A DNA stretch of 64,000 nucleotides, from contig JAEYAL010000156.1 in NCBI GenBank assembly GCA_023404805.1, forward strand, positions 6,298 to 70,297, in the 5' to 3' direction. Positions 33,248 to 52,955 of the stretch are shown piece after piece; the stretch's first letter is position 1, and every line of letters begins with the position of its first letter. Both the position numbers and the translations under genes were made by a program. The stretch is from Actinomycetes bacterium. GTDB taxonomy: Bacteria; Actinomycetota; Thermoleophilia; Solirubrobacterales; Solirubrobacteraceae. The notes beneath the pieces are model-generated. The model searched no databases. It was not told the origin of the DNA and saw only the letters and a list, made by a program, of their open reading frames with translations.

Positions 33248-34408
33248 TCAGCGGCTCACGATCGCCGTCGCCATGCGGCGGACGGTCTCGCGCAGCAGGG
33301 CGGGGCTCGTCGCGAAATTGAGGCGGACGTGGCCGGCGCCCGCGTCCGGGTCGTAGTTGCTGCCTGCCGCGAGCGCCACGTCGCCCTGCGTGAGGAGGAA
33401 GTCGGCCGCCTCGCCCGGCAGCGCATAGGCCCGCAGGTCGAGCCACGCGAGGTAGGTGGCCTGAGGCGGCGACCAGCGCGCAGCCGGGAGATGCTCGGCG
33501 AGGAGCAGGCCCAGCTCGTCGCGGTTGGCCGCCAGCTGCGCGAGCACCGCGTCCAGCCAGTCGTCGCCGCTGGTGAAGGCCGCCTCGGACGCGGTCACGC
33601 CGAGGAGGCCTGCGTGGGCGCCGATCGCTGGCAAGCCCCGGACGACGGCGTCGGCCTCGGGTGAGGCCGTCACGATCAGCGCCGCCTTGAGCCCCGCGAG
33701 GTTGAACGCCTTCGACGCCGAGGTGAGGACCACGCCACGCCGCCGGGCCGCGTCGGACACCTCATGCCAGGCGACGTGCCGGGCGCCCGGCAACACGAGC
33801 GGCGCATGGATCTCGTCGCTCAGCACCCACGCCTCGTGGAAGTCCGCGAGCTCGGCGACCGCCTCGAGCTCGGCGCGCGGGAGCACGCGGCCCGTCGGAT
33901 TGTGGGGACTTGCAAGCACGATCACACGAGCGCCCGCGCGCAGACGCGCGTCGAGCGCGGTGAGGTCGAGCGAGCCGCTGGCCAGGAGCGGAACGGCCAC
34001 CGGGCGCAGCCCGATCGCGGTGGGCGCGCTCCAGAACGGGGGGTAGGCGGGGCTGGCGAACACCACTTCGCCGCCCGGCCCGGCGAGGGAACGGGCCAGC
34101 TCCGTGAGCGCCACCATCACGTCAGGCGCCAGCGCCATGCGCGCCGGGTCCGGCGCCCAGTCCAGTCGCCGCTGTGCGAAGCGGGCGAACGCGTCAAAGA
34201 GCGAAGCGGGGGCCCTGAGCGGATAACCGAAGTCGTGTCGCTCGACCGCCGTTCTCAGCACTCCGGTCACGGCCTCTGCCACCGGGAAGTCCATCTCGGC
34301 GACCGTGGAGGCGAGGACGTGCGGCGAGTGCTGGCTCCACTTCTCGGAGCGGCGCGCGGCGAGCTCGGAGAGCGGCGCCACAGTGAGGTCGATAGTGCGC
34401 GCAGACAC
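33248..34408 (-). CDS. PLP-dependent C-S lyase / aminotransferase, MalY-PatB type
   Basis: The GTG at 34408 gives VSARTIDL.... EKWSQH...VAEMDFP, SPHNPTGRV and the SASKAFNLAGLK PLP-lysine motif are present. Confidence 0.8.
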   Translation of the reverse strand: MSARTIDLTVAPLSELAARRSEKWSQHSPHVLASTVAEMDFPVAEAVTGVLRTAVERHDFGYPLRAPASLFDAFARFAQRRLDWAPDPARMALAPDVMVALTELARSLAGPGGEVVFASPAYPPFWSAPTAIGLRPVAVPLLASGSLDLTALDARLRAGARVIVLASPHNPTGRVLPRAELEAVAELADFHEAWVLSDEIHAPLVLPGARHVAWHEVSDAARRRGVVLTSASKAFNLAGLKAALIVTASPEADAVVRGLPAIGAHAGLLGVTASEAAFTSGDDWLDAVLAQLAANRDELGLLLAEHLPAARWSPPQATYLAWLDLRAYALPGEAADFLLTQGDVALAAGSNYDPDAGAGHVRLNFATSPALLRETVRRMATAIVSR

Positions 34409-34672
34409 ACCGCGGAGCCTACGGGGGGACGGGTACCCACGCTGGTGGTACGGGCCGTTTGGGGCGGTTCTACGTCGTTCCTCCCCGATTTTCCTCAAAG
34501 GCCGGGGTGTTTTAGGAGTTTTTGCCCGTGGGATGTCTGGAAACACCGCAGCGCACCGCATTTCAGAAGTGGACAACTCGTTCCGTGGGCAGTCCAGCAG
34601 ACCTAGCGTTCGTGGCGCACCGAACACCCGCTCCGCAGCCCGCGGTGCCGCCGATCTCGCTGCTCTCACGAC

Positions 34673-36166
34673 ATGCCCACACCGGATCTCCTCCTTCGCG
34701 TCTCCGACCACGCCCGGCGCGCTCCGAGCCGCCCAGCGCTCTTCTTCCGCGGTGCCTGGACAACGTACGCGGACCTCGCGGCCGCAACGTCGCGGGCGGC
34801 CGACGCCCTCTTCCGGAGCGGCCTGCGCCGCGACGAGCAGCTCGTGCTCCTGGCCCCCAAGTCGCCGGACGCGGTGGCGCTGCTGCTAGCGGCGTGGGAC
34901 GCCGGGTATCAGGTGCTCGTGCCGTCCCCCGCGCTCGGAGAGCAGGCGCTCGCAGCGCTTGCCGAGCACACCGGGGCCGGCGCGATCGCCCGGCTCGGTG
35001 ACGGCGGCCTCCTCGCGCTCGACGTCGAGCATCTCGGCCAATCGGCTGCTGGCCACGACGGGCCGCCCGCGTGGAACGCGGACCTCCTGCTCACCACGTC
35101 TGGGAGCACGGGCGTCCCGAAGGTCGTCCCGATCGACCGCCGCGGCGCTGATCTGTTCTTCGCCTGGGCCGCTGCCGAAGCAGGGATCGGGGCGGATGCG
35201 CGCGTGGTCAGCTACGCGCCGCTCAACTTCGACGTGTCGCTGCTCGACGTCTGGGCAACCCTGTCGCGCGGCGGCGCGGCCATCTTGGTGGACGCGGAGG
35301 CGGCCACCGATGGCGCCGCGCTTGCCGACGTGCTGACCGTGACCGGGGCGACGGTCGCCCAGGCCGTGCCGCTCGCCTTCCGGCTGATCGCCGGCCACGC
35401 GCAAGCGCCGCTGCTCGACCTCGAGCGCATCCTGCTCACCGGAGACGTCACGCCGCCCGACCTCGCCGCTCAGCTTTCGGGGATCGCCCCGCGCGCCCGG
35501 ATCCACAACGTCTACGGCTCCACCGAGACGAACGACTCGACCTGGCACGAAGTATCAGCCGCGGAGCTCGCCAGCGGACAACCGCTCGCGATCGGGCGTC
35601 CGCTGACCGGCGCAGACGCGCGGCTCGTGGACCTCGACGGCCAGCTGGTCGACGGCGCCGGGGAGGGGGAGCTGTGGACGTCGACCCCGTTCCAGGCACG
35701 GGGCTACCTCGACCGGGCTGCGACGGAGGCCGCGTTCATCCCCGCGGCGCTCGGCACGGGCCGCACCTTCTACCGGACCGGCGACCTCGCGACCCGCGCT
35801 GACGACGGGTTGCTCCGCCTGGCCGGCCGCCTCGACCACCAGGTCAAGGTCAGCGGCGTCCGGACCAACCTCGCCGCCGTCGAGGCCGTGCTCCGCGACG
35901 CCGACGGCGTCGCCGATGCCGTCGTCGTCGCCCTGCCCGACGACGTCGCCGGACACCGGCTCCACGCCGTCGTCCAGCGGCGGCCGGACGCAGCGGTCAA
36001 CAGCCTTCTCCTGCGGAGCCACGCGGCGCCGCGCCTTCCTCGCACCGCAATCCCGCGTGCGTACTCCATCGCCGACGAACCGCTTCCGCGCACCGCTACG
36101 GGAAAAGTCGACCGGCAGGCGGTCACGCGCGCCATCACCAGCACCCAGAGCCATGTCACGACTTAG
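34673..36166 (+). CDS. stand-alone amino-acid adenylation enzyme (ANL superfamily, NRPS A-domain / DltA-like)
   Basis: The core motifs occur in order: LLLTTSGSTGVPKVV (A3), FDVS (A4), NVYGSTET (A5), GELW (A6), YRTGDL (A7), GRLDHQVKVSGVR (A8) and PRTATGKVDR (A10). Confidence 0.9.
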   Translation: MPTPDLLLRVSDHARRAPSRPALFFRGAWTTYADLAAATSRAADALFRSGLRRDEQLVLLAPKSPDAVALLLAAWDAGYQVLVPSPALGEQALAALAEHTGAGAIARLGDGGLLALDVEHLGQSAAGHDGPPAWNADLLLTTSGSTGVPKVVPIDRRGADLFFAWAAAEAGIGADARVVSYAPLNFDVSLLDVWATLSRGGAAILVDAEAATDGAALADVLTVTGATVAQAVPLAFRLIAGHAQAPLLDLERILLTGDVTPPDLAAQLSGIAPRARIHNVYGSTETNDSTWHEVSAAELASGQPLAIGRPLTGADARLVDLDGQLVDGAGEGELWTSTPFQARGYLDRAATEAAFIPAALGTGRTFYRTGDLATRADDGLLRLAGRLDHQVKVSGVRTNLAAVEAVLRDADGVADAVVVALPDDVAGHRLHAVVQRRPDAAVNSLLLRSHAAPRLPRTAIPRAYSIADEPLPRTATGKVDRQAVTRAITSTQSHVTT

Positions 36167-36407
36167 CGCGATCAAGGACTTGATCGTCACGAACTTCGCC
36201 CCCGACATCGTCGCGGACGACCTGCCCGACGACTACGAGCTGCTCGCCAACGGCGTCGTCGACAGCCTGGGCGTGGTCAAGCTCGTCGGCTTGCTCGAGC
36301 AGCGCTTCGCCCTCGACCTCGACATCGCCGACCTGACGCCGGACGCGTTCCGCTCGGCCCAAGCGATCGACAGCTTCATCGACGTCCTCGCGCCAGCGGC
36401 CGCCTGA
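36153..36407 (+). CDS. acyl/peptidyl carrier protein
   Basis: The ATG at 36153 overlaps the A-enzyme gene by 14 nt. The 84-aa protein has GVVDSLGVVKLVGLLE, the phosphopantetheine Ser in a DSL motif. Confidence 0.8.
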   Translation: MSRLSAIKDLIVTNFAPDIVADDLPDDYELLANGVVDSLGVVKLVGLLEQRFALDLDIADLTPDAFRSAQAIDSFIDVLAPAAA

Positions 36408-36515
36408 CACCCGCCCGGGCCCGCAGACCACCCCGAACACCACCACCCCGCCCGCTTCACGCACCAACCGCGCTTCGGCGCATTCACCAACCGCAACACG
36501 AGCGTTACCGACACC

Positions 36516-36890
36516 ATGATCGTACGGACGAAACACAGCACCCACGGAGTGGACTGGGGCAACGGGCGGAGCTTCCGGCTCCTCGTCGACCAGGACGGAT
36601 TGGGATTCACCCTCGCCCACACGCACGTGTCGGCGGGAACCGAGTCCAAGCTGCAGTACCGCCGCCACCTCGAGGCGTGCTACTGCATCGACGGGCGCGG
36701 AGAGATCGTCACCGAGGACGGCGTCGCACATCCGATCGAGCCGGGAGTCCTGTACGCGCTCGACGCGCACGATGCGCACACGCTGCGGGCCAGCCCAGAG
36801 GGCGATCTCGAGCTGATCAGCGTCTTCAATCCTCCGCTCACCGGCCAGGAGCGCCACGAGCTCTCCGCCGACGGCTACTCCCAGTACTGA
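36516..36890 (+). CDS. EctC-type cupin (solitary L-ectoine synthase homolog)
   Basis: MIVR..., W.N.RSFRLL..DG.GF, AGTES, HLEACYCIDGRGEI, PIEPGVLYALDAHDAHTLRA and VFNPPLTGQERH run collinear with canonical EctC over the full 124 aa. Confidence 0.85.
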   Translation: MIVRTKHSTHGVDWGNGRSFRLLVDQDGLGFTLAHTHVSAGTESKLQYRRHLEACYCIDGRGEIVTEDGVAHPIEPGVLYALDAHDAHTLRASPEGDLELISVFNPPLTGQERHELSADGYSQY

Positions 36891-36905
36891 AGGGCCCGCG
36901 GGACC

Positions 36906-38132
36906 ATGACCCTCACCCGACCTCTTGCCGCCGCGCCCGTCGAGCCCACGCTCGACGGGGCGGCGGCCCCGCCGCCGCTCACTGAGCTCGCGGCCTGGGC
37001 GCAGCGCCTCGGCGAAGTCGGCGAGCGGCGGCGGCCGCACGTCGGCGCAGACGATGCCGCCGGACGCTTCCCGGCGCAGGCCTTTGCGGAGGTCGCGGCG
37101 ACGGGTCTGTTCGCGCTGCCCTTCACGGATGACCGGCGCCGGTCCGACACGTCGATCCCGGCGCTGCTCGCGGCGATCGAGGAGCTCGCCTACACGAGCG
37201 ACGACGCCGGGCTGGCGTTCGCGGTCGCGACACAGCTGGCCAGCGCGATCATCCCGCTGGCGCGCTTCGGCGCGCCTGCCCTGCGTGAGGAGCTCGCCGG
37301 CGCGCTCGCTGACGGGACGCTCGTGGGTGCGCACGCGATCACCGAGCCTGGCGCCGGGTCCGACACGTCGGCGATCACGACAGTGGCGCGCCCCGATGGC
37401 GACGGCCATCTCCTCGTCTCGGGGGAGAAGGCGTTCGTCTCCAACGGCCCTGTCGCCGACCTGATCGTGGTCTACGCGCAGGTCGGCGAGCCCGGCGCGT
37501 CGGGTGGCCTCACCGCGCTGGCCGTCGATGCGGACGCACCTGGCGTGAAGCCGGGCGCCGCGCTCAGCACGCTCGGCCTCCGCACGAGCCCGCTGGGCAC
37601 GCTGAGCCTCGACGGGGTTCGCGTTCCGCGCGGCCGCGTGGTCGGCCAAGTCGGCGCAGGGCCGTGGCTACTGTCGCACGTGATGGCCCGTGAGATCCTC
37701 TTCATCGCGGCCGGCCACGTCGGCTTGCTGCGCCGCCGCTACGAGCGGCTGGTAGACCGGGCACGGACGCGGCACCAGGGCGGCGTGCCGATCGGCAGCC
37801 ATCAGGCGGTCGCCCACGCCGTCGCCGACGTGAAGCTCTCGTTGGACACCGTGCGCCTCTGGCTCGATCACGCCGCCACGGTGCTGGTGTCAGGCGCCGA
37901 TGCGAGCGCGGAGATCGCGTCGCTCAAGATCGTCGCCTCGGAGGCTGCCGTGAGCTCGGCGCGGACCGCGGTGCAGGTGTTCGGCGGCGACGGCTTCCTC
38001 ACCGGTACCGAGATCGAGCGCGGGTTGCGCGACGCCGCCGCGTCGACGATCTACTCGGGTACGAACGAGATCCAGCGCAACAAGATCGCGGCGCTCGCCG
38101 GGATCACGACACCAGCAAGGGGTGCATGGTGA
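36906..38132 (+). CDS. acyl-CoA dehydrogenase-fold flavoenzyme (possibly acting on a carrier-protein-bound substrate)
   Basis: GAHAITEPGAGSD, GEKAFVSNGPVAD, QVFGGDGF and IYSGTNEIQRN are present. The canonical YEG catalytic Glu is replaced by Ser. Confidence 0.85.
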   Translation: MTLTRPLAAAPVEPTLDGAAAPPPLTELAAWAQRLGEVGERRRPHVGADDAAGRFPAQAFAEVAATGLFALPFTDDRRRSDTSIPALLAAIEELAYTSDDAGLAFAVATQLASAIIPLARFGAPALREELAGALADGTLVGAHAITEPGAGSDTSAITTVARPDGDGHLLVSGEKAFVSNGPVADLIVVYAQVGEPGASGGLTALAVDADAPGVKPGAALSTLGLRTSPLGTLSLDGVRVPRGRVVGQVGAGPWLLSHVMAREILFIAAGHVGLLRRRYERLVDRARTRHQGGVPIGSHQAVAHAVADVKLSLDTVRLWLDHAATVLVSGADASAEIASLKIVASEAAVSSARTAVQVFGGDGFLTGTEIERGLRDAAASTIYSGTNEIQRNKIAALAGITTPARGAW

Positions 38133-38809
38133 CCCGTTCGTCCACGTCCGGTCCGCGATCGGCGCAGGTGCCCGCGAGGTACCTCGCCGCGACCGACCAC
38201 CTCGACTTCCGCCACCCGGCGGTGGCGGCCTTTGTCGAACGCGAAACCGCCGACGCCGCCGACGAGCGCGAGGCGGCCGTGCGGCTTTACTACGCCGTGC
38301 GCGACGGGCTCGACTACGACGTCTTCGGGCAGGACCTGTCGTCCGGCGGGGTGCGCGCCAGCGCGATCCTCGAGCGCGGGCAGGGGTTCTGCCTCCACAA
38401 GTCGATCCTCTACGCCGCCGCGGTGCGCGCGGTCGGGGTGCCAAGCCGGCTCAAGGTGTCGGAGGTGCGGAACCACCTCAGCTCGCCGCGGCTGCGCACG
38501 CTCGTCGGGGGCGACCTCTTCGTGCACTGGCTCACCGAAGTCCACCTCGGGGGCCGCTGGGTCAAGGCGACCCCGGTGTTCAACAAGCTGCTGTGCCGCC
38601 TGTACGGCATCGAGCCGCTCGAGTTCGACGGCGTGCACGACGCATCGGCGCACCCGTTCAAGGACGGCGCCGAGATGCGGTTCCTCACCGACCACGGCAC
38701 GTACGCCGATCTCGATTACGGCCACCTCATCGGCGTGATGCGGCAGCGGCACCCGCGGATGTTCGAACTTGGCCTGTGCACCCCGCGAAGCGTGGCCGTG
38801 GCGGCATGA
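38126..38809 (+). CDS. transglutaminase-like cysteine-protease-fold protein
   Basis: GQGFCLHKSILYAAAVRAVGVPSRL is the nucleophile Cys motif and HWLTEVHLGGRWV is the His motif. The start overlaps the ACAD stop (ATGGTGA). Confidence 0.7.
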   Translation: MVTRSSTSGPRSAQVPARYLAATDHLDFRHPAVAAFVERETADAADEREAAVRLYYAVRDGLDYDVFGQDLSSGGVRASAILERGQGFCLHKSILYAAAVRAVGVPSRLKVSEVRNHLSSPRLRTLVGGDLFVHWLTEVHLGGRWVKATPVFNKLLCRLYGIEPLEFDGVHDASAHPFKDGAEMRFLTDHGTYADLDYGHLIGVMRQRHPRMFELGLCTPRSVAVAA

Positions 38810-39468
38810 CCGCGCGTGCCGCACCCGAGCCGGCGGAGGGCGAGGCGCCGCTGACGCTTGATGTGTTCTTCGACTACGTGTGCCCGTACTGCCTGATCGT
38901 GGAGGACGCGGTCGAGCAGGTGGCCGAGCGCCGGCAGCTCGCCGTCCGCTGGCTGCCGTTCGAGCTGCGGCCGTATCCGAGCGCCACGCTGCGCCCGGAA
39001 GATCCGTACCTCCCGGCGGTCTGGCGCGACAGCGTGTATCCACGAGCCGCCGCCGCCGCGGGCGTCCCGATCTCGTTGCCGACCACGTCGCCGCAGCCTT
39101 GGTCGCACGCCGCGTTCGAGGGCCGGATCCACGCGGCCAGCCACGGCGTGGAGCGCGCGTGGGACCGCGCGGTGCTGCGGGCGTTCTTCCAGGAGGACCG
39201 CGACATCGGCGACCTCGCCGTGCTCGCCGCGATCGGGGAGGCGGTCGGACTCGATCCGGCGCAGGTGCGCGAGGCGCTCCAGGAGCGCCGCTACGAAGGA
39301 GCGCACCAGGCTGCCCTCCGCGAGGGCCGCGCCGCCCACATCTCGGCGGTGCCGACGCTGCGGCTCGGGCGCCACTCGTTCGCAGGGGCGCCCGACGAGG
39401 CCCGCCTCGATCATTTCGTCGGGCTCGTGCTCGACGAACGCTCCGCGAGCGCGGGGCCCGCGGCATGA
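38806..39468 (+). CDS. DsbA-family thioredoxin-fold protein (FrnE / 2-hydroxychromene-2-carboxylate isomerase-like)
   Basis: The ATG at 38806 overlaps the upstream stop (ATGA). LDVFFDYVCPYCLI carries the CPYC motif, and ISAVPTL is near the C-terminus. Confidence 0.75.
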   Translation: MTARAAPEPAEGEAPLTLDVFFDYVCPYCLIVEDAVEQVAERRQLAVRWLPFELRPYPSATLRPEDPYLPAVWRDSVYPRAAAAAGVPISLPTTSPQPWSHAAFEGRIHAASHGVERAWDRAVLRAFFQEDRDIGDLAVLAAIGEAVGLDPAQVREALQERRYEGAHQAALREGRAAHISAVPTLRLGRHSFAGAPDEARLDHFVGLVLDERSASAGPAA

Positions 39469-39989
39469 GCGCGTCGCCCGGCATCGATGACGTCGCCCTG
39501 CAGGCGCTCGTCGCCCAGGCGGTCGACCTTTCGACCGCCGAGGTGGCTCGGGGCGGCATCCCGTTCGCGGCGCTGGTGGTCGACCCGCTCAGCGGCGAGG
39601 TGCTCGGCGAAGGCGTCAACCGGGTTGCCGAGCAGCACGACGCGCTCGCGCACGCGGAGATCGTCGCCTTGCAGGACGCCGCCCGGCGCCGGGGCGCCTA
39701 CGCCCTGCCCGGCTCGCTGCTGATCGCCTCCGGCGAGCCCTGCGGCCTGTGCTATCACGCGGCGCTGCAGTTCCGGGTCGGCCACGTCGTCTACGCGGCC
39801 AGCGCCGATGACGCGGCGCGCTACGGCTTCGACTACCGCGGCAGTTACAGCCTGTTCCGGTCGGCGCCCCGCCAGTGGTGGCCGGGCGGTGTCCGCGCGG
39901 TCGCCGTCGACGGCGCGCTGGCGCCGTTCGACCTGTTCGCAAACCACGACGCCGCTCGTCTAGAGCGCCAGGAGAAGAATCCAAGATGA
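39465..39989 (+). CDS. CDA-fold zinc deaminase (nucleoside/guanine/tRNA-adenosine deaminase-like)
   Basis: The ATG at 39465 overlaps the upstream stop (ATGA). HAEIVALQ and GEPCGLCYHA are the zinc-ligand motifs. Confidence 0.75.
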   Translation: MSASPGIDDVALQALVAQAVDLSTAEVARGGIPFAALVVDPLSGEVLGEGVNRVAEQHDALAHAEIVALQDAARRRGAYALPGSLLIASGEPCGLCYHAALQFRVGHVVYAASADDAARYGFDYRGSYSLFRSAPRQWWPGGVRAVAVDGALAPFDLFANHDAARLERQEKNPR

Positions 39990-40789
39990 CGAACGGCCTT
40001 CGCACGCGGAACGACGGGTGGGACGCACGGTTCCGGCTCGGCGTGATCGTCCCGCACGCCGATGTCGGCCCCGAGGCCGAGCTGCAGGCGATGGCACCGC
40101 CTGACGTGTCGATCCACGCGGGCCGCGTGTACTTCGGCGCGATGCGCGCCGGGGGCAAGATGGACCCGAAGATCCCGCACGACCCGGTGCTGGCGTTCGT
40201 GGCGCCGGGCGCCATCGACGAGACGCTGGAGCTGCTCGCGGCGGCGCCGCTCGACGCGATCGGGCTCGCGTTCACGAGTTCGGCCTACAAGCTCGGCCCG
40301 GCCGGAGAGGACGACCTCGTCGACCGGCTCGCCGAGCGCGCCCGCGGTATCCCGCTGCTCTCTGGCGGCCGTGCTGCGGCGGAAGGGCTGCGGTCGCTCG
40401 GCGTGCACCGCTTGGCGCTGATCCACCCGCCGTGGTTCGACGACGCGCTCGACGAGCTCGGCGCCCGCTACTTCGAGGCTCAGGGGTTTGAGGTGGTGCA
40501 CCACGCGCCGGCCGCCATTCCCAGCGACCAGTCGCTCATCACGGCCGACGCGGTGTTCGAGCATGTGCGCGACGTCGCCCGCGACGCCGACGGCGTGTTC
40601 ATCGCGGGCAACGGCTTCCGCGCCGTCGGCGCGATCGCCCGGCTGGAGCACGCGCTCGGGATCCCGGTGCTCTCGGCCAACCAGGCGCTGCTCTGGCGGG
40701 CGCTGGCGGGCCACGTCTCCGGCCGCGGCGCGTCCCGGACGGTGCACGGCTTCGGCCGGCTGTTCGACGCTGAGGCGTCGGCCTTCTGA
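39986..40789 (+). CDS. Asp/Glu/hydantoin racemase superfamily protein (maleate isomerase / arylmalonate decarboxylase-like), cysteine-free
   Basis: The ATG at 39986 overlaps the upstream stop (ATGA). LGVIVPHAD..., LAFTSSAY, LIHPPW, VFIAGNGFRAV and IPVLSANQALLW run collinear with maleate isomerases. The 267-aa protein contains no Cys. Confidence 0.65.
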   Translation: MTNGLRTRNDGWDARFRLGVIVPHADVGPEAELQAMAPPDVSIHAGRVYFGAMRAGGKMDPKIPHDPVLAFVAPGAIDETLELLAAAPLDAIGLAFTSSAYKLGPAGEDDLVDRLAERARGIPLLSGGRAAAEGLRSLGVHRLALIHPPWFDDALDELGARYFEAQGFEVVHHAPAAIPSDQSLITADAVFEHVRDVARDADGVFIAGNGFRAVGAIARLEHALGIPVLSANQALLWRALAGHVSGRGASRTVHGFGRLFDAEASAF

Positions 40790-40905
40790 GCGAACCGCAG
40801 AGGCGGAACAGACCTGGTTCTGGGTCGCCACGCTGGGTGGGGGCGGCCCGGAACCGGGGGTCGAGGCCGGGCGCTCCGGCTTCTGCCGTCGTCCTGCACG
40901 CGGGG

Positions 40906-42174
40906 TCAAGCGCCCGTCACGCGCACCGAGATCTCACGCGAGGCCAGGCGCGCGAACCAGCGGTCGCGCACGTTGCGCTCCAGGTGCGGCTGTCCCGTCT
41001 GGCTCAGGTCTTCGGCCAGCCGCCGGTCGTTCCCGGTCGAATCCAGGCGCCAGCGGGTGAGGGCATCTTGGAAGCGCTGGGCGCACGTATCGTCCGGGCC
41101 CTGCGGGCGGTGCAACGCAAGCCGGCTCACACTTGAGCAGGTACGCGGCGCGCGGGAGACTGCTCCGATCTTCTCGAGCGCCGCGAGCCCAGCCTGGATC
41201 GTCTTGCGGTTGTCGGCTTCGGGGTCGAGCTGGAGCCGCGGAGAGACGTCGCGCGTGAGCGCAGCGACGGACACGTCGACGCTGCCCGTCTGCCCGCCGG
41301 CCTGCTCGGCGAGCACGAGCCAGATCTGCGTGCTGCGCACCACGCGGCGCATCTGCGGCCGCGAGTACTTGTCGCCGCAGAACAGCAGCGCCGCGATCTC
41401 CGCCTCGCCGAGCAGCAGCGGCTGCCCTCGCCGGGACTCGGCCGGTAGCGCGCTGGCGGGGACGCCACCGCGCGGGCGCAGGCAGTCGCTGACCGTCGAC
41501 CGGCCGACGCGCGCTGCCAGCGCGGCCGGAGGGGCGCGGAAGATCGGGTCCGGGGCGCCAGGCGCCGGATCGGCGAACTCGGCCCGGAGCCGATCGCTGG
41601 CTGCCAGGCCCCGCCAGCCCCGCGCGCCGAAGCCGTGGTCGAACAGCCGGATACGCGCATCGGTGAGCAGCCGCTGAAGCTGGGTGCCGCCCGGGTCCTC
41701 CGGCGAGATGCCGTCGTAGGCGAGCACCCCTGAGCGCAGCTGCGCCGGTGACGGCGCGGGCGCGCGCGGCAGCGAGAGCTCGCGCCCTTGCCGCGCGAGG
41801 GCGCCGATGCCGATGAGCGTGTCGAGGGCCTCGTCGTAGGCGGGGACGTGCGACTCGTGTGAACGCAGCACGCGGCCGTAGCGTTCGCGCACATCGGGCA
41901 TCTCGCCGGGGAGCTGAGCGTGCACGCCGCCCGCCCGGGCGACGATCAGCGCGTGGAGCAGCGCGACCGCCAACGCGTGGTTGACCGGCACGCTGCGCCC
42001 GAGCGCGAGCGCGAACACGTCGAACGGCGCGACGAGCACCGGCCACGCGCTCCCTGGGTCGGCGGCCGGCGGCGCGCCGCGCCGCGCGTCGACCAGCCCC
42101 GCGGGCTCGTAGTCGAGCTCGTCGGCGGCCAGATAGCCGCGCCACGCGAACTCCTCTCGGACCAGTGTGCGCAT
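40906..42174 (-). CDS. hypothetical protein (ORFan, 422 aa)
   Basis: The internal ATG at 42174 gives MRTLVREEFAWRGYL.... The composition is protein-like (F, Y, W, I, D and E all present), unlike the Arg/Ala/Pro-rich alternative frames. I recognise no motif. Confidence 0.5.
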   Translation of the reverse strand: MRTLVREEFAWRGYLAADELDYEPAGLVDARRGAPPAADPGSAWPVLVAPFDVFALALGRSVPVNHALAVALLHALIVARAGGVHAQLPGEMPDVRERYGRVLRSHESHVPAYDEALDTLIGIGALARQGRELSLPRAPAPSPAQLRSGVLAYDGISPEDPGGTQLQRLLTDARIRLFDHGFGARGWRGLAASDRLRAEFADPAPGAPDPIFRAPPAALAARVGRSTVSDCLRPRGGVPASALPAESRRGQPLLLGEAEIAALLFCGDKYSRPQMRRVVRSTQIWLVLAEQAGGQTGSVDVSVAALTRDVSPRLQLDPEADNRKTIQAGLAALEKIGAVSRAPRTCSSVSRLALHRPQGPDDTCAQRFQDALTRWRLDSTGNDRRLAEDLSQTGQPHLERNVRDRWFARLASREISVRVTGA

Positions 42175-42215: not shown

Positions 42216-42839
42216 TCAGCCGCGCCCGACGAGTTCGAGCGCAAGCGCGGTGGGCACGCCGCCGTTGATGTTCGCCACGTCCTGCGGGCACGCCGAGACG
42301 ACGACGAGCAGGTCGTCGAGGGCCTGCAAAGTCACGCTGGCTCCCGGCGCGGTGTCGCTGGGCAGCCAGGTCAGCACGCCATCGACCGCCACCGGGATGC
42401 GCATGAAGAGGTTGACGGGCTGCGGCGCGACGGCGGGCACCGGCGCGCCCGCGGCGCGCAGCGCCTGTGCCAGGTTCTCGACGCACGAGGCATGGCCGGG
42501 CGCAGCGCCGAGCTGGGCGTAGCGGACGGGATCACAAGCCGGGATGAGCATGTCGTGGGCGCCCGGCGAGTCGTCGGCGACGAGCTCGAGCAGCGGCCGC
42601 CGCCGCGTGGAATAGAACCGCTCGCCGACCGCCGGAAACAACCGGTCGGTCCGCGCCCGAGTGTGCCCGGCGCTCACATGCTCGTCGTGCCCGGGCTCCA
42701 CGAAGGCGAAGAGGTCGCCGACCTGGCCGCCCTCGACGTCGACCACGCGGAAGGCATCGCCGGCGCGCACGCGCACGGCCCGCGCCGTGCGCGCGGGGAT
42801 CGGCACGACCGCCGGCCGGCTCGTCGGGCGCGTGCTCAC
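42216..42839 (-). CDS. DUF1989 (urea-carboxylase-associated family) protein
   Basis: The GTG at 42839 overlaps the upstream stop (GTGA). VVDVEGGQVGDLFAF, GAHDMLIPACD, PVNLFM and VVVSACPQD match my recollection of DUF1989. Confidence 0.65.
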   Translation of the reverse strand: MSTRPTSRPAVVPIPARTARAVRVRAGDAFRVVDVEGGQVGDLFAFVEPGHDEHVSAGHTRARTDRLFPAVGERFYSTRRRPLLELVADDSPGAHDMLIPACDPVRYAQLGAAPGHASCVENLAQALRAAGAPVPAVAPQPVNLFMRIPVAVDGVLTWLPSDTAPGASVTLQALDDLLVVVSACPQDVANINGGVPTALALELVGRG

Positions 42840-44662
42840 CGGGCTTCGACCGGCGCCCACTCGCCGCCGTCCCGCTTCCAGCCGTCGTACCCCGTATCGA
42901 GGTGCGCCACGTCGCGGTAGCCGAGCTCCCGCAGCGACTTGGCTGCCAGCGCCGAACGCCAGCCGCCCGCGCAGTAGACCACCGTGCGCTGTGCCGGATC
43001 GAGGTAGTCGCGGTGGTACGGCGACCGCGGGTCGGCCCAGAACTCGACGAACCCGCGCGGCACATGCCGCGCCTGCGGGATCGCGCCGTCGCGGACCCGC
43101 TCGCGCTCGTCGCGCACGTCGATCACGAGCACGTCGCCAGCCGCCAGCTCCGCCGCCAGATCCGGCGTCGACAACGCGGGGATCTCGGCGCGGGCCGCGT
43201 CCACGAGACCGCGCACGCCGTGCTCAGACACCCGGGGACGCTCGCGGTGCTCACGCTCGTAGAGCCGCACGACCGCGCGCACCGCCGCGTTGACGGAGTT
43301 GAACACCGGCACGCCGCCACGCCGCAAGATCCGCGCCGGCTCGGTGTCGTCGTACCACGTGTGCACGACCACTGGGACCGGCCCCGCGGCGGCCTGCACG
43401 ATCGCGTGCGCCGCCTCGAGCTCATCGGCGACGAAGTCCTCGGACTGCGCCTTGTAGCCGCCGAACATGCCGCTGAACACGACGGCGTCGACCTCGCCGG
43501 ACTCTGCGACCACGCGGATCGCGGCCGCATAATCGCTGAGCTCGAAGTGCGACCCGCCCGTGATATCGACCGGGTTGCGGCGCGCGGAGGCGCCCGCCGT
43601 CGCCTCGACCAGCGCGGCGTCGACGGCGTCGGAGAGCCGAGGCACCTCGAGCCCGTGGTCGAGGACCGCGCCTGTCCCGAGCACCGCCTGACCGCCGCCG
43701 TCGGCGACCACGCCGACGCGCGGCCCCGCCGGCGTGGCGGTCGCGCGGAGCGTCTCGGCCGCCTCGATCAGATCGGCTGGCGTCGACACGTGCAGGATGC
43801 CAGCGGCGCGAGCCGCCGAGCGCAGCTCGAGCTGGGAAGCGAGCACGGATCCGGTGTGGGCGTGGGCGGCACGGGTCGTCGCCACACCGTCCGGCGGGGT
43901 GAGGAACACGACGGGTTTGCCTGCCGCCGCGGCGTAGCCAGCCGCGTCGATGAGCGCGGGCAGGTCGCGCACCTCCTCGAGGTATGCGCCGATCACATGC
44001 GTCGACGGGTCGTCGGCGAGCGCGCGGAGCAGCTCTGCGGCGGTCACGTCGGCCTGGTTGCCGAACGAAACGAGCCGCGAGAACCCGAGGTCGGAGCGGC
44101 GTCCGAGGGTGACGAGCTCTGTGATCACCCCGCCGCTCTGCGAGATCACGCCCACGTGGCCGCCGCGTGGGTCGTCGAGCCAGGTCATGGCGTCAAGCTG
44201 GCTGTCGTCGACTCGGATGCCGTTGCAGTTCGGGCCGATCAACAGCGCGCCGGCGTCGCGCACCTTCTCCGCGATCCGCGCCTCGAGCTCAGCGCCGAGC
44301 GGGCCCGACTCGCGGAACCCGACCGTGATCACGACGATCGCCTTCGCGCCCGCCGCCAGGGCGGCGTCGACGGTCTCCTCGACGCTGGCCTGCGGCACGA
44401 CCACGATCACGAGGTCCGGCGCCTCGGGCAGCTCGGCGAGGCTGCGGAAGGCTGGCTGGCCCAGGATCTCGCCGCCGCTGCGCGTGACGAGCCGGACGGT
44501 GCGCCGCCCCGCCCCCTGCAGCAGGTTCCGGGCCACGAGGTGGCCCCACTTCGTCGGGTTCGCCGATGCGCCGACGAGCGCGACCACGCGAGGGTCGAAC
44601 AGCGCGTCCCAGTCCCGTTGCGGCGTGGGCGGCGCGGGGGCCGGGGTCTGCGAAAGGGTCAT
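42836..44662 (-). CDS. ADP-forming acyl-CoA synthetase alpha-type (CoA-binding plus CoA-ligase domains) fused to a C-terminal rhodanese domain
   Basis: The internal ATG is at 44662. VALVGASANPTKWG is the CoA-binding motif. GPNCNGI and AAHAHTGSV (phosphohistidine-type motif) are present. The C-terminal ~110 aa has DVLVIDVRDERE...VVYCAGGWRS, a rhodanese active-site loop. Confidence 0.75.
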   Translation of the reverse strand: MTLSQTPAPAPPTPQRDWDALFDPRVVALVGASANPTKWGHLVARNLLQGAGRRTVRLVTRSGGEILGQPAFRSLAELPEAPDLVIVVVPQASVEETVDAALAAGAKAIVVITVGFRESGPLGAELEARIAEKVRDAGALLIGPNCNGIRVDDSQLDAMTWLDDPRGGHVGVISQSGGVITELVTLGRRSDLGFSRLVSFGNQADVTAAELLRALADDPSTHVIGAYLEEVRDLPALIDAAGYAAAAGKPVVFLTPPDGVATTRAAHAHTGSVLASQLELRSAARAAGILHVSTPADLIEAAETLRATATPAGPRVGVVADGGGQAVLGTGAVLDHGLEVPRLSDAVDAALVEATAGASARRNPVDITGGSHFELSDYAAAIRVVAESGEVDAVVFSGMFGGYKAQSEDFVADELEAAHAIVQAAAGPVPVVVHTWYDDTEPARILRRGGVPVFNSVNAAVRAVVRLYEREHRERPRVSEHGVRGLVDAARAEIPALSTPDLAAELAAGDVLVIDVRDERERVRDGAIPQARHVPRGFVEFWADPRSPYHRDYLDPAQRTVVYCAGGWRSALAAKSLRELGYRDVAHLDTGYDGWKRDGGEWAPVEAR

Positions 44663-44691
44663 CGTCGTCCTCCGTGGGCGGATGTGTGGTG

Positions 44692-45894
44692 CTAGAGCCG
44701 GACGAGCCCGTGCGGACGCGGCGTGAGCCGCTCCGCGCCGTCGCCGGTGATCACATAGATGTCTTCGATCTGGTGGCCGCCGAGGCCGCGCACGTAGTAG
44801 GGCGTCTCGAAGCAGACGACCATCCCCGGCTCGAGCGGCCGCAGCTCGGTCGGTGCGAGGAACGGCCCTTGCTCGTCGAGACCGAGGCCGGCGGCGTGGC
44901 CGACGTGGCCGCGCGTATACGTCGGAAGGCCCGCGTCGCGGACGGCGGCCTGGGTCGCGTAGAACACCTCGCTCGCGGGCGTCCCCGCTCGCAGCAGTGG
45001 AACGCCCGCCGCGTGGCCGGCCGCGAGCGCCTCGAGGATCCGCTCCGACCACGGGTGGGGCTCGCCGATCGCGTAGGAGCGCCCGGCGTCGCTGCCGTAG
45101 CCGTGGAGCTCTGCGCCGTAGTCCACCCACAGGGTCTGCCCGTCCTCGATCCGCCGTCCGTCGACCTGCGTCGCGGGCGCCACGTCGCCGCCAGCGGTGA
45201 CGTCGGCCCGCAGCGCGGTGAGGCCTGCGAACTCAGGCGTCTGAAGCGCGGCGCCGTGCACCGCCGCGGCGTACCGCGTCCGTAGCTCCTGCACCGTGCG
45301 CCCGCGCGGGTCCACGCCGAGCACGGCATCCAGGCCGGCGTCGGCCACGCGCGTCGCGCGTCGCAGCAGGTCGATTTCAGCGGGGTGCTTGACGGCGCGC
45401 AGGTCGTAGAAGGCGCCGCTGGCGTCCACGAGCTCGACCTCCGGCGCGGCGCCGGCGAGCGCTGACGCCTCTGCGGCGGTCAGCGCGTCCAGCTCGACGC
45501 CGATCCGGCCTCGCGAGAGGCCGTGGCGCCGCAGCGCCGCCGCTACGACGTCGGCGCTCACGGCGAGGTCGAGCTGGACCGGCTTGGGCCGCACTGCGGT
45601 GCGGCCGGCCTGCAGCGCTTCGAGGTCGTCGATCTCGATCCACGTCGGCACCTCGAACACCTCGGTGCCGTCGGCGCGCGTCTGGGCGGCAGCGCGCGCC
45701 GCCTCCCATGCGCCGACGACGAGGGTGCGCTCACCGCTCGGTTCGAGGACGGCTGCGCCGCCGCTCACTCCGGCGTGCCACGGCCGGAAGCCCGTGAGGT
45801 ACTGCACGTTGTCGAGCGTGAGCGCGAGGAGCCCGTCGAGCGACTCGCGCTCGAGGACCGCTGCAGCTCGGGCCGGATCGAGGAACGACGTCAC
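44692..45894 (-). CDS. M24-family metallohydrolase with a creatinase/prolidase-type N-domain (Xaa-Pro peptidase / creatinase / ectoine hydrolase-like)
   Basis: The GTG at 45894 overlaps the upstream stop (GTGA). KHPAEIDLLRRA is present. Metal-ligand regions are WVDYGAELHGYGSDAGRSY, GHVGHAAG, VCFETP and HQIEDIY. Confidence 0.8.
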   Translation of the reverse strand: MTSFLDPARAAAVLERESLDGLLALTLDNVQYLTGFRPWHAGVSGGAAVLEPSGERTLVVGAWEAARAAAQTRADGTEVFEVPTWIEIDDLEALQAGRTAVRPKPVQLDLAVSADVVAAALRRHGLSRGRIGVELDALTAAEASALAGAAPEVELVDASGAFYDLRAVKHPAEIDLLRRATRVADAGLDAVLGVDPRGRTVQELRTRYAAAVHGAALQTPEFAGLTALRADVTAGGDVAPATQVDGRRIEDGQTLWVDYGAELHGYGSDAGRSYAIGEPHPWSERILEALAAGHAAGVPLLRAGTPASEVFYATQAAVRDAGLPTYTRGHVGHAAGLGLDEQGPFLAPTELRPLEPGMVVCFETPYYVRGLGGHQIEDIYVITGDGAERLTPRPHGLVRL

Positions 45895-47501
45895 GACTGG
45901 AACCAGACGTCTTTGAACCGGTAGTTGCCGAGCGGCAGCCCGGTCCGCGCAGGCTTCAGCCCGCCGAGTTTGGCCGAGTACGCGTCGACGACGTTGTAGA
46001 AGTAGGGGATCAGCAGGCCGCCCCGGTCGTACTCGATCTTCTGGGCCTGGTGCAGCAGCGCGGTGCGCGCCTGGTCGTCCGGCTCCTGCTTCGCTTTGTG
46101 GATCAGCGACGCGAACTCCGCGTCGTCGAAGTGCGTCTCGTTGTAGGGCGCTGACTTCAGATGCGTCGCCGCGACCTGGGCGAAGTACGAACGGGTGGTC
46201 CAGTAGGTCTGGGCGAAATCCCACTTCTTGTAGTTCGGGCCGAAGAAGGTGTCCGTGCCGAGCTTCTTGAGCTTGATCTGGATCCCGGCGGCCTTCGCCT
46301 GCTCGGCGTAGACCTCGGCGAGGTCGACGATCCCCGCCACCTGCGGGGCGGTGACCAGCTCGAGCCGCAGGTCGCTGCGGCCGGCCGCCTTCAGCAGCGA
46401 CTTGGCCTGCTCGAGATCCTGCGCGCGCTGCGGCAGGCTGCGGTCGTAGGCCGGGTCCAGCGGAGAGACGACGTCGTTGGCCACGCGCCCTTCGCCGGCG
46501 AGGACCTGGGCGACGAGCTGGTCGCGGTCGGCGGTCAGCCGCAGCGCCTGCCTCACCCGCACGTCGCTGAGCGGAGACCGGTCGACGCGCAACGTGAACG
46601 CGTGCCAGTTCCCGGTCTCGGCGCGCAGCACGCGGAACCCCTTGTTCGCGTCGATCGTCTTGCGCTGCGCGGGCGGGAGGTCCGAGATCGCGTCGACTTG
46701 GCCGCCGAGCAGCGCGTTGACGCGAGCAGCGTCGTCGGGAAAGTCGATGATGACCAGCTCGTCGACGTACGGCTTGCCGTCCTGCCAGTAGTTCGGGTTC
46801 TTCTTGAACAGGCTCTGCCGGCCGGGTTCGAAGCTCACGAACTGGAACGGCCCGGTTCCGATCGGCTTCTTCGGGTCGTAGTCCGCCGGAACGATCGCGA
46901 CGGTGATCCGCGCGATGTCGTCGCGGAAGTTCGCGTTGGGCTCCTTGAGCGGGATCCGCACGGTGCGCGCGTCGATCTTCTTGAGCGCCCTGGCGTCGAC
47001 CGCGCTCAGGGCGGTCGCCGCGCTTTTCGGGTCCTTGGGATCGAGGATCCGCCGCAGCGACGCGATCACGTCGTCGGCGCCGACCGTGCGCCCGTCGTGG
47101 AACTGGACCCCGTCCCGCAGCTTCACGATCCAAGCGTCGAGGCCGCCGTCGGGCTCGATCGACTCGGCGAGCACGAGCTCGATCCCGAAGTCCAGGTCGC
47201 GGATGGCGAGCGGCTCATAGAGGTTGTTCGCACGGGTGGCGTCGACGAGCGAAGCGTCCGACAGGTGCGCGTCCAGCGTGTCCTGGGGACCGCCGCCAGC
47301 GATGCCGACGCGGAGCCGTCCGCCGGGCTTTGGCGCTCCGCCCGCGGTGGTCGCCGCAGTCGATGTGCCGTCGTTGCCGCAGGCGGCGAGGAGGCCGCCG
47401 GCGCCGAGTAGCACGCCCCCTGCGAGGGCGCTGCGCACGAGGGTGCGCCGGGTCAGCGGGCTGGCGGAGCCGAGGCCGAGGGGATCGTCGTAGGGGGTCA
47501 T
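45891..47501 (-). CDS. ABC transporter substrate-binding lipoprotein, family 5 (peptide/nickel/opine type)
   Basis: The Tat-like N-terminus is RRTLVRSALAGG and the lipobox is LLAAC. The ~530-aa size and overall pattern fit SBP family 5. Confidence 0.85.
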   Translation of the reverse strand: MTPYDDPLGLGSASPLTRRTLVRSALAGGVLLGAGGLLAACGNDGTSTAATTAGGAPKPGGRLRVGIAGGGPQDTLDAHLSDASLVDATRANNLYEPLAIRDLDFGIELVLAESIEPDGGLDAWIVKLRDGVQFHDGRTVGADDVIASLRRILDPKDPKSAATALSAVDARALKKIDARTVRIPLKEPNANFRDDIARITVAIVPADYDPKKPIGTGPFQFVSFEPGRQSLFKKNPNYWQDGKPYVDELVIIDFPDDAARVNALLGGQVDAISDLPPAQRKTIDANKGFRVLRAETGNWHAFTLRVDRSPLSDVRVRQALRLTADRDQLVAQVLAGEGRVANDVVSPLDPAYDRSLPQRAQDLEQAKSLLKAAGRSDLRLELVTAPQVAGIVDLAEVYAEQAKAAGIQIKLKKLGTDTFFGPNYKKWDFAQTYWTTRSYFAQVAATHLKSAPYNETHFDDAEFASLIHKAKQEPDDQARTALLHQAQKIEYDRGGLLIPYFYNVVDAYSAKLGGLKPARTGLPLGNYRFKDVWFQS

Positions 47502-51113: not shown

Positions 51114-51130
51114 GTTTGATGGCGACGATG

Positions 51131-51190
51131 GCATACGATCAAGCAACCATCAACCGAAAAGTTGCCTTATCGGTCAATAGTTGCTCAGGT
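51131..51190. promoter_or_regulatory. AT-richer nested inverted repeats upstream of the ABC/catabolic operon
   Basis: AGCAAC (51142-51147) pairs with GTTGCT (51180-51185). The inner repeat is CAAC-cgaaaa-GTTG (51151-51164). The region sits in a locally GC-poor tract 18-75 nt upstream of the permease start. Confidence 0.35.
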
Positions 51191-51324
51191 TTCCCCGTCT
51201 GGGCCAGCGCGATCGGAAGGGCGGCGAGGCACGCCGGACCCGGAGCGGTCCGCGGGTGCGGCGCAACGGCGAGGGGCACGGGTGCACGAGGCGCCGGCGT
51301 CCGCCGACAGCCAGGTGCCGGCGC

Positions 51325-52835: not shown

Positions 52836-52878
52836 CGTGTTCCCCCGAATGTCGCTCGTGCTGGCGCGATGCAGCTGT

Positions 52879-52906: not shown

Positions 52907-52955
52907 CGGCGGGCGCCGGATGGCGGTGCTTGTCCCCAAACGGGGGAGAAGCTGT

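Follow-up and report, generated by a model that had tools for sequence, protein, structure and literature searches.

The closest described counterpart of the genes considered here is the showdomycin cluster (sdm) of Streptomyces showdoensis. As summarized in a review (PMC8724604), SdmE cyclizes L-glutamine to 2-amino-1-pyrroline-5-carboxylate (ADPC), SdmC activates the product and loads it onto the carrier protein SdmD, and oxidation followed by hydrolysis affords 2-amino-1H-pyrrole-5-carboxylate, to which SdmA adds ribose-5-phosphate before SdmB strips the phosphate; the later decarboxylation, deamination and redox steps are described as non-enzymatic, and the route is cited to Ren et al. 2021, with Palmu 2017 as a further reference for the cluster. 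A comparable logic, in which a stand-alone adenylating (A) enzyme, a carrier protein and a flavoprotein of the acyl-CoA dehydrogenase (ACAD) fold act on a five-membered cyclic aminoacyl thioester, is shared by the prolyl triads PltF/PltL/PltE, RedM/RedO/RedW, PigI/PigG/PigA, Bmp4/Bmp1/Bmp3 and AnaC/AnaD/AnaB. Both arrangements serve as references for a stretch of 64,000 nucleotides from a bacterium of the Solirubrobacteraceae (GenBank assembly GCA_023404805.1, contig JAEYAL010000156.1, positions 6,298 to 70,297 of the forward strand), which is referred to below, at its full length, as the window. Its positions 34673-40789 carry eight plus-strand genes that most likely constitute one translationally coupled operon, with the first five genes most likely forming a 2-aminopyrrole-5-carboxylate cassette of the showdomycin kind.

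Comparison with the Showdomycin Cassette

Compared by description, the window and the sdm cluster contain the same five families, namely an EctC-like cyclase, an A enzyme, a carrier protein, an ACAD oxidase and a hydrolytic release enzyme. The tailoring genes differ. A C-glycosynthase (IndA/YeiN-like, corresponding to SdmA), a haloacid dehalogenase-type (HAD) phosphatase (corresponding to SdmB) and a major facilitator superfamily (MFS) transporter were all missing from the 64-kb window in tblastn searches with representatives from related loci. In their place, the window has a DsbA/FrnE-like protein, a deaminase of the cytidine deaminase (CDA) fold and an EutA/arylmalonate decarboxylase (AMDase)-like protein of the Type I subfamily, Type I being the name used here for cassettes with this set of genes. 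Since there is no C-glycosynthase, the product cannot be a C-nucleoside, and the operon is not a showdomycin cluster.

The genes were called by third-position GC in a window of ~72% G+C. The values for the A enzyme, carrier, EctC-like and ACAD genes, all on the plus strand, lie between 0.87 and 0.96, and identical calls were obtained on the source contig (metagenome assembly in ENA). The eight genes are separated by short gaps or overlap at their start and stop codons, and such overlaps are continuous from the ACAD gene to the last gene of the operon. An earlier reading of the same DNA, made from the letters without database searches (the sequence-only reading), had proposed four genes, from the A enzyme to the ACAD; their sizes and positions were all confirmed by the gene calls and by Pfam, but the four further translationally coupled genes downstream had been missed. 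A scan of 34300-41000 for promoters and terminators gave nothing beyond the shuffled expectation.

The conservation of the cassette was examined in 84 loci, 80 of them fetched from the 521 EctC-like relatives found in a scan of species-representative genomes (one genome per species) and four obtained earlier, which were searched with the window proteins by tblastn. As these loci were seeded on EctC, the co-occurrence runs one way only, from the EctC clade to the other four genes. Homologues of the A enzyme are present in all 84 loci, those of the ACAD in 79, of the carrier in 74 and of the transglutaminase (TGase)-like enzyme in 73; the counts for the remaining proteins are 43 for the AMDase-like protein (showdomycin-type loci included), 20 for a pair of small multidrug resistance (SMR) proteins, 16 for the DsbA-like protein, 15 for the deaminase and 15 for a MarR regulator. 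Gene content, motifs, conserved synteny and the common A-domain code are what the data show directly for the cassette. The most frequent gene order is A, carrier, EctC-like, ACAD, TGase-like. The EctC-like gene, which the sequence-only reading had regarded as an unusual interruption of a triad, is therefore an integral, conserved part of the system, the order A, carrier, EctC-like, ACAD being the commonest one among the related loci.

The explanation that best accounts for the locus as a whole, the core together with the rest of the operon, is assigned a probability of roughly 0.7; its central part, according to which the five-gene core functions in the manner of the showdomycin-type aminopyrrole cassette and probably belongs to this type, is held with marginally more confidence. 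The likely substrate is ADPC, a proline look-alike, and the likely product is a 2-aminopyrrole-5-carboxyl rather than a pyrrole-2-carboxyl group. This assignment of the core is favored because all A enzymes have one specificity code whatever the cluster type, and because in ~35 loci the same core adjoins genes for an Indigoidine_A/YeiN-like protein (IndA, PF04227), a HAD hydrolase and an MFS transporter, which together are the SdmA/SdmB signature. It is further favored because the precedents SdmE and Athv28 cyclize glutamine, because the role of the catalytic Glu is documented in AnaB and Bmp3, because the ACAD and the TGase-like enzyme are fused in seven loci, and because each of the eight proteins bears out its family assignment and catalytic motifs.

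No S. showdoensis entry was present among the matches listed for an IndA-like protein of a Type II locus, or in a cluster-member look-up. A 60%-identical candidate for the S. showdoensis sdm cluster was rejected, as it is a different IndA cluster.

Adenylating Enzyme and Carrier Protein

The ten specificity positions of the A enzyme were located with the help of the core motifs and then followed in an alignment comprising 83 A enzymes from cassettes. For the window enzyme the code is DVLLLTVDSK, with Asp235 and Lys517 kept, and the consensus of the 83 enzymes is DLL[LM][LVI]T[VLI]DSK, the same in loci with and without a C-glycosynthase. In IndA/HAD-linked loci such as L023 the code is DLLLLTVDSK, which differs from that of the window once, conservatively, at position 236. 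The presence of Asp235 and Lys517 is read as the mark of an alpha-amino-acid substrate, and the amidinium group of ADPC would find a suitable partner in the near-invariant Asp330; the A enzyme is predicted to activate ADPC and to load it onto the carrier. The window code does not resemble the canonical codes for Pro, Gln and Gly.

Among PDB entries, the A enzyme matches A domains of nonribosomal peptide synthetases (NRPS) best, with the LgrA glycine module at the top (254 bits) and PltF in mid-ranking position (130 bits). The LgrA glycine module was considered as a guide to the substrate and rejected, given that the specificity code is unlike the Gly code; the match appears to mirror overall similarity and not the pocket. 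In the carrier protein, the phosphopantetheine site is Ser37 within a DSLG motif, invariant in 75/75 homologues, and NCBIfam returns weak matches to the AmcB and DltC carriers.

EctC-like Cupin

The third gene of the operon encodes a protein that scores well above the Pfam threshold for ectoine synthases (123 bits vs a cut-off of 27) and also passes that of the NCBIfam ectoine-synthase subfamily (139 vs 128); EctC of P. lautus (5onn) matches it at 4e-29. With EctC and Athv28 it shares the cupin fold and the Glu/Tyr/His iron ligands, here E53, Y80 and H88, which are invariant in the family, and the equivalents of Ser23, Arg25, Thr40 and Tyr52 of EctC are also kept. The differences from canonical EctC concern length (124-125 aa, hence shorter), a family signature WGNGxSxRL...QYRRHLEACYC, and the positions of Trp21 and Asn38, which contact N-gamma-acetyl-2,4-diaminobutyrate (ADABA) in EctC. 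These two are Gly and Ala/Cys in the family and Gly17 and Ala34 in the window protein, where a Trp lies three residues upstream. A homologue search recovered 434 proteins at E <=1e-10; among the matches listed, proteins of 124-125 aa with 59-70% identity and a tight common signature occur in actinomycetes and Gammaproteobacteria. Neither ectA nor ectB is present in the window, and neither adjoins the EctC-like gene in the loci examined.

The function of such solitary EctC proteins was described as unresolved in a 2018 paper. Two precedents bear on it: Athv28, the EctC-like protein of the anthelvencin cluster, turns glutamine into ADPC in vitro, and the same conversion is a known side reaction of true EctC. 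By analogy with these enzymes, the EctC-like cupin is predicted to be a glutamine cyclase that produces ADPC.

The altered pocket also admits a different sequence of events, in which the A enzyme would load L-glutamine (or glutamate) and the EctC-like protein would cyclize the carrier-bound residue before oxidation, giving the same aminopyrrole. The change at the two ADABA-contact positions relative to canonical EctC, the location of the EctC-like gene immediately after the carrier gene and the wording of PMC8724604, where the showdomycin order is only "proposed", are all compatible with this order of steps. It is nevertheless considered unlikely: both Athv28 and canonical EctC cyclize free glutamine, and a phosphopantetheinyl thioester would be hard to accommodate in the EctC fold, a small, closed cupin that has a lid at its C terminus. 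In addition, the strongly conserved A-domain code is unlike the known Gln codes. Cyclization of free glutamine ahead of loading is retained as the preferred order.

ACAD-Fold Flavoprotein

In the ACAD, the motif IYSGTNEIQ corresponds to residues 382-390 and the segment SHVMAREILFIAAGHVGL to residues 257-274. The best matches among solved structures are AnaB (4irn, annotated as "prolyl-ACP dehydrogenase", 186 bits), 6cxt (175 bits), the Bmp3-Bmp1 prolyl-carrier oxidase complex, and PigA (5zw0, 173 bits). No ordinary short-chain ACAD scores above 167 bits, and FkbI is at 93 bits. Two features of the active site had been deduced by the sequence-only reading, namely the replacement of the Glu of the canonical Y-E-G motif by Ser and, through alignment by hand, a Glu in the AnaB-type position. 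Both are borne out. In HMMER alignments Glu263 coincides with the Glu of AnaB (4irn, ...MEWERGF...) and of 6cxt (...MDWERCC...), both of which likewise carry (Y/F)SGT instead of YEG, and all 70 of 70 ACADs from cassettes have Glu263 as well as Tyr383-Ser384-Gly385. According to the chalkophomycin paper, the equivalent Glu is the catalytic base that abstracts the C2 proton in AnaB and Bmp3. It is predicted that the ACAD acts as a 2-electron oxidase which converts the carrier-bound pyrroline into the aminopyrrole.

The top NCBIfam models for the ACAD are two L-prolyl-PCP dehydrogenase equivalogs (RedW and PigA). Since the protein remains far under both equivalog cut-offs (NF045652, 241.7 bits vs 650; NF053553, 237.3 bits vs 500), it is not a RedW/PigA-type member. 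Relative to the prolyl triads, the window presents a mixed picture: the helix that bears the catalytic Glu in AnaB and Bmp3 bears it here too, and YSG stands for YEG, whereas the equivalog cut-offs are missed, the A-domain code is different and the substrate would come from a dedicated cyclase. Only a 2-electron oxidation would be needed, and release by the TGase-like enzyme is predicted instead of hand-over to a ketosynthase, a condensation domain or a halogenase.

These observations speak against the conversion that the sequence-only reading had in mind, in which L-proline is loaded and the prolyl-S-carrier is oxidized by four electrons to pyrrolyl-2-carboxyl-S-carrier, as by PltF/L/E and RedM/O/W, with the EctC-like gene as an unrelated insertion. 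Its wider idea of an aminoacyl-S-carrier oxidation triad holds, in that an A enzyme, a carrier and an ACAD are combined for a cyclic amino acid and AnaB, 6cxt and PigA, all prolyl-carrier dehydrogenases, are the best matches of an ACAD that has the AnaB-type Glu and the YSG motif. The prolyl substrate is not supported and is regarded as improbable, in view of the missed cut-offs, the co-conservation of the EctC-like gene, usually between carrier and ACAD, and the lack of a halogenase, of polyketide synthase (PKS) or NRPS genes and of any other pyrrolyl acceptor in the window. The specificity code, whose extraction had been suggested as a check on the triad, points in the same direction: DVLLLTVDSK differs from DVQLIAHVVK, the canonical NRPS proline code of Stachelhaus, its Asp330 suits a cationic side group, and it is common to the EctC-linked A enzymes.

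Predicted Release Enzyme and Proposed Core Pathway

Cys89 and His134 of the TGase-like protein are invariant in 74/74 sequences. Sequence search of the PDB yielded no relative of this protein. An AlphaFold model built with 34 homologues (mean pLDDT, the predicted local distance difference test score, 91.5) was therefore of use for Foldseek comparison, in which putative Cys proteases, TGases and arylamine N-acyl/acetyltransferases using thioester donors were matched with TM-scores of ~0.45-0.48; one of the matched transferases was solved with an acyl-SNAC thioester. With enzymes of the arylamine N-acetyltransferase (NAT) fold, such as the arylamine N-acyltransferases 8k51/8k56, and with TGase-like enzymes that use thioester donors, the window protein shares the papain/TGase-like core with its invariant Cys and His, and it differs in having no relative in the PDB at the sequence level and TM-scores of only ~0.45-0.48. 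AdmF of the andrimid pathway is a TGase-like enzyme with a thioester donor. The modeled fold fits a Cys enzyme that would take the acyl group from the carrier thioester. Release by hydrolysis is assumed by analogy with showdomycin, and acyl transfer to an amine would be the alternative. In seven gammaproteobacterial loci (L003, L019, L024, L028, L048, L052 and L073), which are all the gammaproteobacterial Type I loci, the ACAD and the TGase-like enzyme are fused into a single protein of 603-640 aa.

Taken together, a four-step core pathway is proposed. The EctC-like Fe-cupin would cyclodehydrate L-glutamine to ADPC (step 1), and the A enzyme would adenylate ADPC and load it onto Ser37 of the carrier (step 2). 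In step 3, Glu263 of the ACAD would take the alpha proton while a hydride passes to the flavin adenine dinucleotide, and this single 2-electron desaturation would be followed by tautomerization to the aromatic 2-aminopyrrole-5-carboxyl thioester. Finally, Cys89 and His134 of the TGase-like enzyme would cleave the thioester and set free 2-amino-1H-pyrrole-5-carboxylate (step 4). The chemistry of these steps is transferred to the operon from the literature on SdmC, SdmD, SdmE and Athv28.

Last Three Genes of the Operon

In the DsbA-like protein the C25-P-Y-C28 motif is conserved in 17/17 sequences. FrnE entries (2e-09) are the sole relatives of this protein in the PDB, and it may serve in redox chemistry or protect thiols. 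The H63-A-E65 and P92-C93-x-x-C96 motifs of the deaminase are invariant in 16/16, the best PDB match being the guanine deaminase of B. subtilis (4e-16), and the enzyme is predicted to hydrolyze the ring amidine or imine. For the last protein, NCBIfam ranks EutA first (71 bits vs 318) and AMDase second (54 vs 225), and AMDase is matched in the PDB at 6.5e-13. The AMDase fold is a scaffold of cofactor-free decarboxylases and racemases, and decarboxylation or tautomerization may be the function of the window protein. The two positions that hold catalytic Cys residues in the superfamily of AMDase, Asp/Glu racemases and maleate isomerases (Gly74 and Cys188 in AMDase numbering) are occupied in it by Phe96 and Gly208, which are conserved in 43/43.

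The set of DsbA-like, deaminase and AMDase-like genes recurs in 15 loci from three bacterial classes. Type I cassettes were found in Actinomycetota (Saccharothrix, Patulibacter, Actinokineospora and Actinopolyspora), in Gammaproteobacteria (Vibrio coralliilyticus, Grimontia, Modicisalibacter, Chromohalobacter, Ca. Tenderia and one metagenome-assembled genome (MAG)) and in Alphaproteobacteria (a Rhodomicrobium MAG). The set is usually accompanied by two SMR genes and a MarR gene, and in most Type I loci the SMR genes lie within the cassette. Overall, Patulibacter sp. has the cassette most similar to that of the window; it likewise has no embedded SMR genes and is likewise followed by a downstream gene for a 422-aa protein.

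In the showdomycin case, the free aminopyrrole acid is reportedly oxidized by air to the imine of maleimide, which hydrolyzes to maleimide. Such an imine may be viewed as a ring-contracted cytosine or guanine analogue and would then be the natural type of substrate for a CDA-fold deaminase. In the scheme proposed here, the last three genes would replace the C-glycosynthase and phosphatase of showdomycin, and the DsbA/FrnE-like protein, the EutA/AMDase-like protein and the deaminase would carry out the oxidation, decarboxylation and deamination that are described as spontaneous in the showdomycin route; the outcome would be a free small molecule of the maleimide or pyrrolinone type, exported by an SMR pair encoded elsewhere. 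This division of the spontaneous steps among three enzymes, and with it the product type, is put forward only tentatively. It is suggested because the set recurs across three classes and because Type I genes co-occur with IndA and HAD genes, together with an MFS gene, in the hybrid locus L084 (Pseudonocardiaceae MAG), a combination from which it is argued that both tailoring sets act on one scaffold. A maleimide or pyrrolinone electrophile would also be consistent with the Old Yellow Enzyme (OYE) gene (N-ethylmaleimide reductase family) in the S. griseus-clade locus, with the UbiD/UbiX and flavin monooxygenase genes of another variant and with the SMR exporters embedded in cassettes. No description of the Type I gene set was found in the searchable literature. 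That it encodes an undescribed enzymatic route from the aminopyrrole acid to a thiol-reactive maleimide or pyrrolinone, under MarR control, with SMR export and spread horizontally among actinomycetes, marine vibrios, Halomonadaceae and an alphaproteobacterium, is possible, although the odds are judged to be against it.

A very different interpretation follows if the annotations are taken at face value. The genes would then serve the metabolism of ectoine or another compatible solute, with EctC forming or opening a tetrahydropyrimidine ring, the EutA-like protein acting in ectoine utilization, and the downstream M24/creatinase and ABC genes providing for uptake and degradation of the solute. 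The NCBIfam ectoine-synthase cut-off is indeed passed, EutA is the best NCBIfam model of the last gene, M24/creatinase, SBP_bac_5 and ABC genes do follow downstream, and several of the hosts are halophilic. However, ectA and ectB are missing from the window, the ADABA site has lost Trp21 and Asn38, the EutA score is far below its cut-off, and only in Patulibacter do the catabolic-looking genes accompany the cassette. Moreover, an ATP-dependent A enzyme with a carrier is a biosynthetic device, and most Type I loci contain embedded genes for SMR exporters, so that a solute-utilization function is very improbable. An aminomalonyl- or hydroxymalonyl-carrier extender-unit pathway (Zma/Fkb type) feeding a PKS, for which the combination of A enzyme, carrier and ACAD-fold enzyme is also characteristic and which is suggested by FkbI among the PDB matches, is scarcely credible, given the weakness of that match (93 bits vs 186 for AnaB), the lack of a 3-hydroxyacyl dehydrogenase partner and of a PKS in the 64 kb, and the conserved EctC-like and TGase-like partners that it leaves unexplained.

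Several points weigh against the aminopyrrole assignment and its extension to the whole operon. The link to showdomycin rests on the gene content of the IndA/HAD-bearing loci and on the description in the review, where the order of cyclization and loading is itself labeled as proposed. The sampling seeded on EctC makes the co-occurrence one-directional, and the LgrA glycine module as best match of the A enzyme gives ADPC no support. As regards the last three genes, both canonical Cys residues are absent from the EutA/AMDase-like protein, so that its role as a decarboxylase is a guess; DsbA-like proteins have no established role as oxidants in such chemistry; and clusters of this type are without any known product.

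Coordinates and Flanking Genes

Table 1. Genes of the operon and of the separate SMR/MarR unit, in window coordinates
Feature	Position	Strand	Domain evidence and remarks
Stand-alone adenylating (A) enzyme, 497 aa	34673-36166	+	AMP-binding 9e-52, AMP-binding_C (Pfam)
Carrier protein, 84 aa	36153-36407	+	PP-binding 21.1 bits vs cut-off 20.8 (Pfam); 14-nt overlap with end of A gene
EctC-like cupin, 124 aa	36516-36890	+	Ectoine_synth 1e-35 (Pfam)
ACAD-fold flavoprotein, 408 aa	36906-38132	+	All three ACAD Pfam domains
Transglutaminase-like Cys/His enzyme, 227 aa	38126-38809	+	Transglut_core 1.5e-15 (Pfam); overlaps ACAD stop codon
DsbA/FrnE-like thioredoxin-fold protein, 220 aa, CPYC motif	38806-39468	+	DSBA 5e-23 (Pfam)
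CDA-fold zinc deaminase, 174 aa	39465-39989	+	dCMP_cyt_deam_1 7e-17 (Pfam)
EutA/arylmalonate-decarboxylase-like protein, 267 aa	39986-40789	+	Amdase 3.5e-15 (Pfam)
SMR gene	52042-52518	-	Multi_Drug_Res (Pfam)
SMR gene	52515-52808	-	Multi_Drug_Res (Pfam)
MarR gene	52956-53402	-	MarR (Pfam)

The MarR-SMR-SMR unit follows the operon at a distance of ~11 kb. Its SMR proteins share 57-70% identity with the pairs that lie in or beside Type I cassettes in Vibrio, Halomonadaceae and the S. griseus clade, an identity that exceeds that to most actinobacterial cassette copies, and its MarR protein is 44-48% identical to those of the same three groups of cassettes. By these similarities, the unit at 52042-53402 may be a detached export and regulation module of the operon, the linkage being suggestive only.

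Directly downstream of the operon, a convergent gene on the minus strand (40906-42174) encodes the 422-aa protein mentioned above, for which no match was found in Pfam, NCBIfam, the PDB or PADLOC. A 50%-identical relative occupies the equivalent position beside the Patulibacter cassette (L010, 14303-15547), and none was detected elsewhere in the 84 loci. Between the operon and the SMR/MarR unit lies a catabolic-looking block on the minus strand (42216-51894), with genes for a DUF1989 protein, an ADP-forming CoA-ligase/rhodanese fusion, an M24/creatinase-type peptidase, an SBP_bac_5 peptide ABC transporter and an HTH-cupin regulator; it is not co-conserved with the cassette, except partly in Patulibacter.

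On the other side, divergent from the A gene, a minus-strand gene at 33248-34408 encodes a PatB-family C-S lyase or class I/II aminotransferase. Its best NCBIfam score, 263 bits for TIGR04350, falls short of the 340 required, and the model for the guanitoxin cyclodehydratase GntC comes second. This gene was rejected as a member of the system, a homologue being present in 0/84 related loci, and it is probably unrelated to the cassette.

Variants of the Cassette in Other Genomes

In the S. griseus clade, a full Type I set (L089, 8377-19790) occurs together with genes for a phosphopantetheinyl transferase, a DUF6253 protein, an AfsA-type butyrolactone synthase and a TetR receptor. The OYE gene of this locus is placed between the DsbA and deaminase genes, in a divergent operon that also contains the SMR pair, and the cluster represents a culturable system. 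The cassette of V. coralliilyticus lies beside a BCCT transporter and siderophore genes.

Other loci combine the core with different partners. In L034, L037, L042, L076 and L080 (about 8000-12000; Couchioplanes, Kineococcus, Sanguibacter and Kitasatospora), the A, carrier, EctC-like and ACAD genes are interleaved with paralogues of the tryptophan pathway, namely a TrpD-like phosphoribosyltransferase and TrpA-like, phosphoribosylanthranilate (PRA)-isomerase-like and indole-3-glycerol-phosphate synthase (IGPS)-like proteins. The TGase-like gene is mostly missing from this variant, L034 being a locus that retains it, and in L005 and L006 the TrpD-like and IGPS-like genes stand downstream of a complete core. 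This suggests that the aminopyrrole acid is handled there like anthranilate. In a group of Streptomyces loci (L047, L051, L053, L062, L066, L070 and others), the core is followed by a PALP enzyme and two ATP-grasp L-amino-acid-ligase genes, along with a glutamate-mutase pair (a B12-binding protein and MutE), which points to peptide-like products containing the aminopyrrole unit. In L086, L044, L054, L055 and L065 (S. luteoverticillatus, S. hesseae and S. abikoensis), a flavin reductase is encoded upstream of the core, and an SMR pair, a styrene-monooxygenase-like flavoprotein, UbiD and UbiX downstream; with this arrangement, the same intermediate would be decarboxylated and oxygenated by enzymes. 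None of the TrpD-like, UbiD/UbiX, ATP-grasp and glutamate-mutase genes of these variants was found in the 64-kb window.

Showdomycin-type loci show a further feature. In L014 (8713-9915), L023 (9022-9948) and L085 (9037-9948), a protein of the ornithine-cyclodeaminase/mu-crystallin family, to which the ectoine-utilization protein EutC belongs, is fused to the carrier or encoded directly before it. The EutC-family and EutA-like genes imply that folds of ectoine catabolism recur around cyclic amidine chemistry. A Streptomyces cluster with IndA, HAD and MFS genes (L088, 10001-20951) carries in addition genes for a glyoxalase, cupins, an asparagine synthase, PrpF, an ACAD and an amidohydrolase; no EctC-like core is present within the fetched stretch, and the cluster may belong to another C-nucleoside pathway.

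Implications

Across these loci, the core known from showdomycin seems to serve as a building-block module that is reused with at least six different tailoring sets. Cupins of this family are named "ectoine synthase" by annotation pipelines, and mining tools flag an "ectoine" cluster, whereas the evidence presented here points to a glutamine-derived aminopyrrole cassette; a testable function is thereby offered for a large group of solitary EctC-type proteins, with their 521 relatives in species-representative genomes. The Type I set is conserved across phyla and present in culturable organisms, V. coralliilyticus ATCC BAA-450 and strains of the S. griseus clade, which makes it a practical target in the search for a small reactive metabolite and three new enzyme activities. 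If the tentative route to a maleimide were true, many "orphan ectoine synthases" would be the entry enzymes of pathways to small electrophiles or antimetabolites, and the "spontaneous" late steps of showdomycin formation would have enzymatic counterparts.

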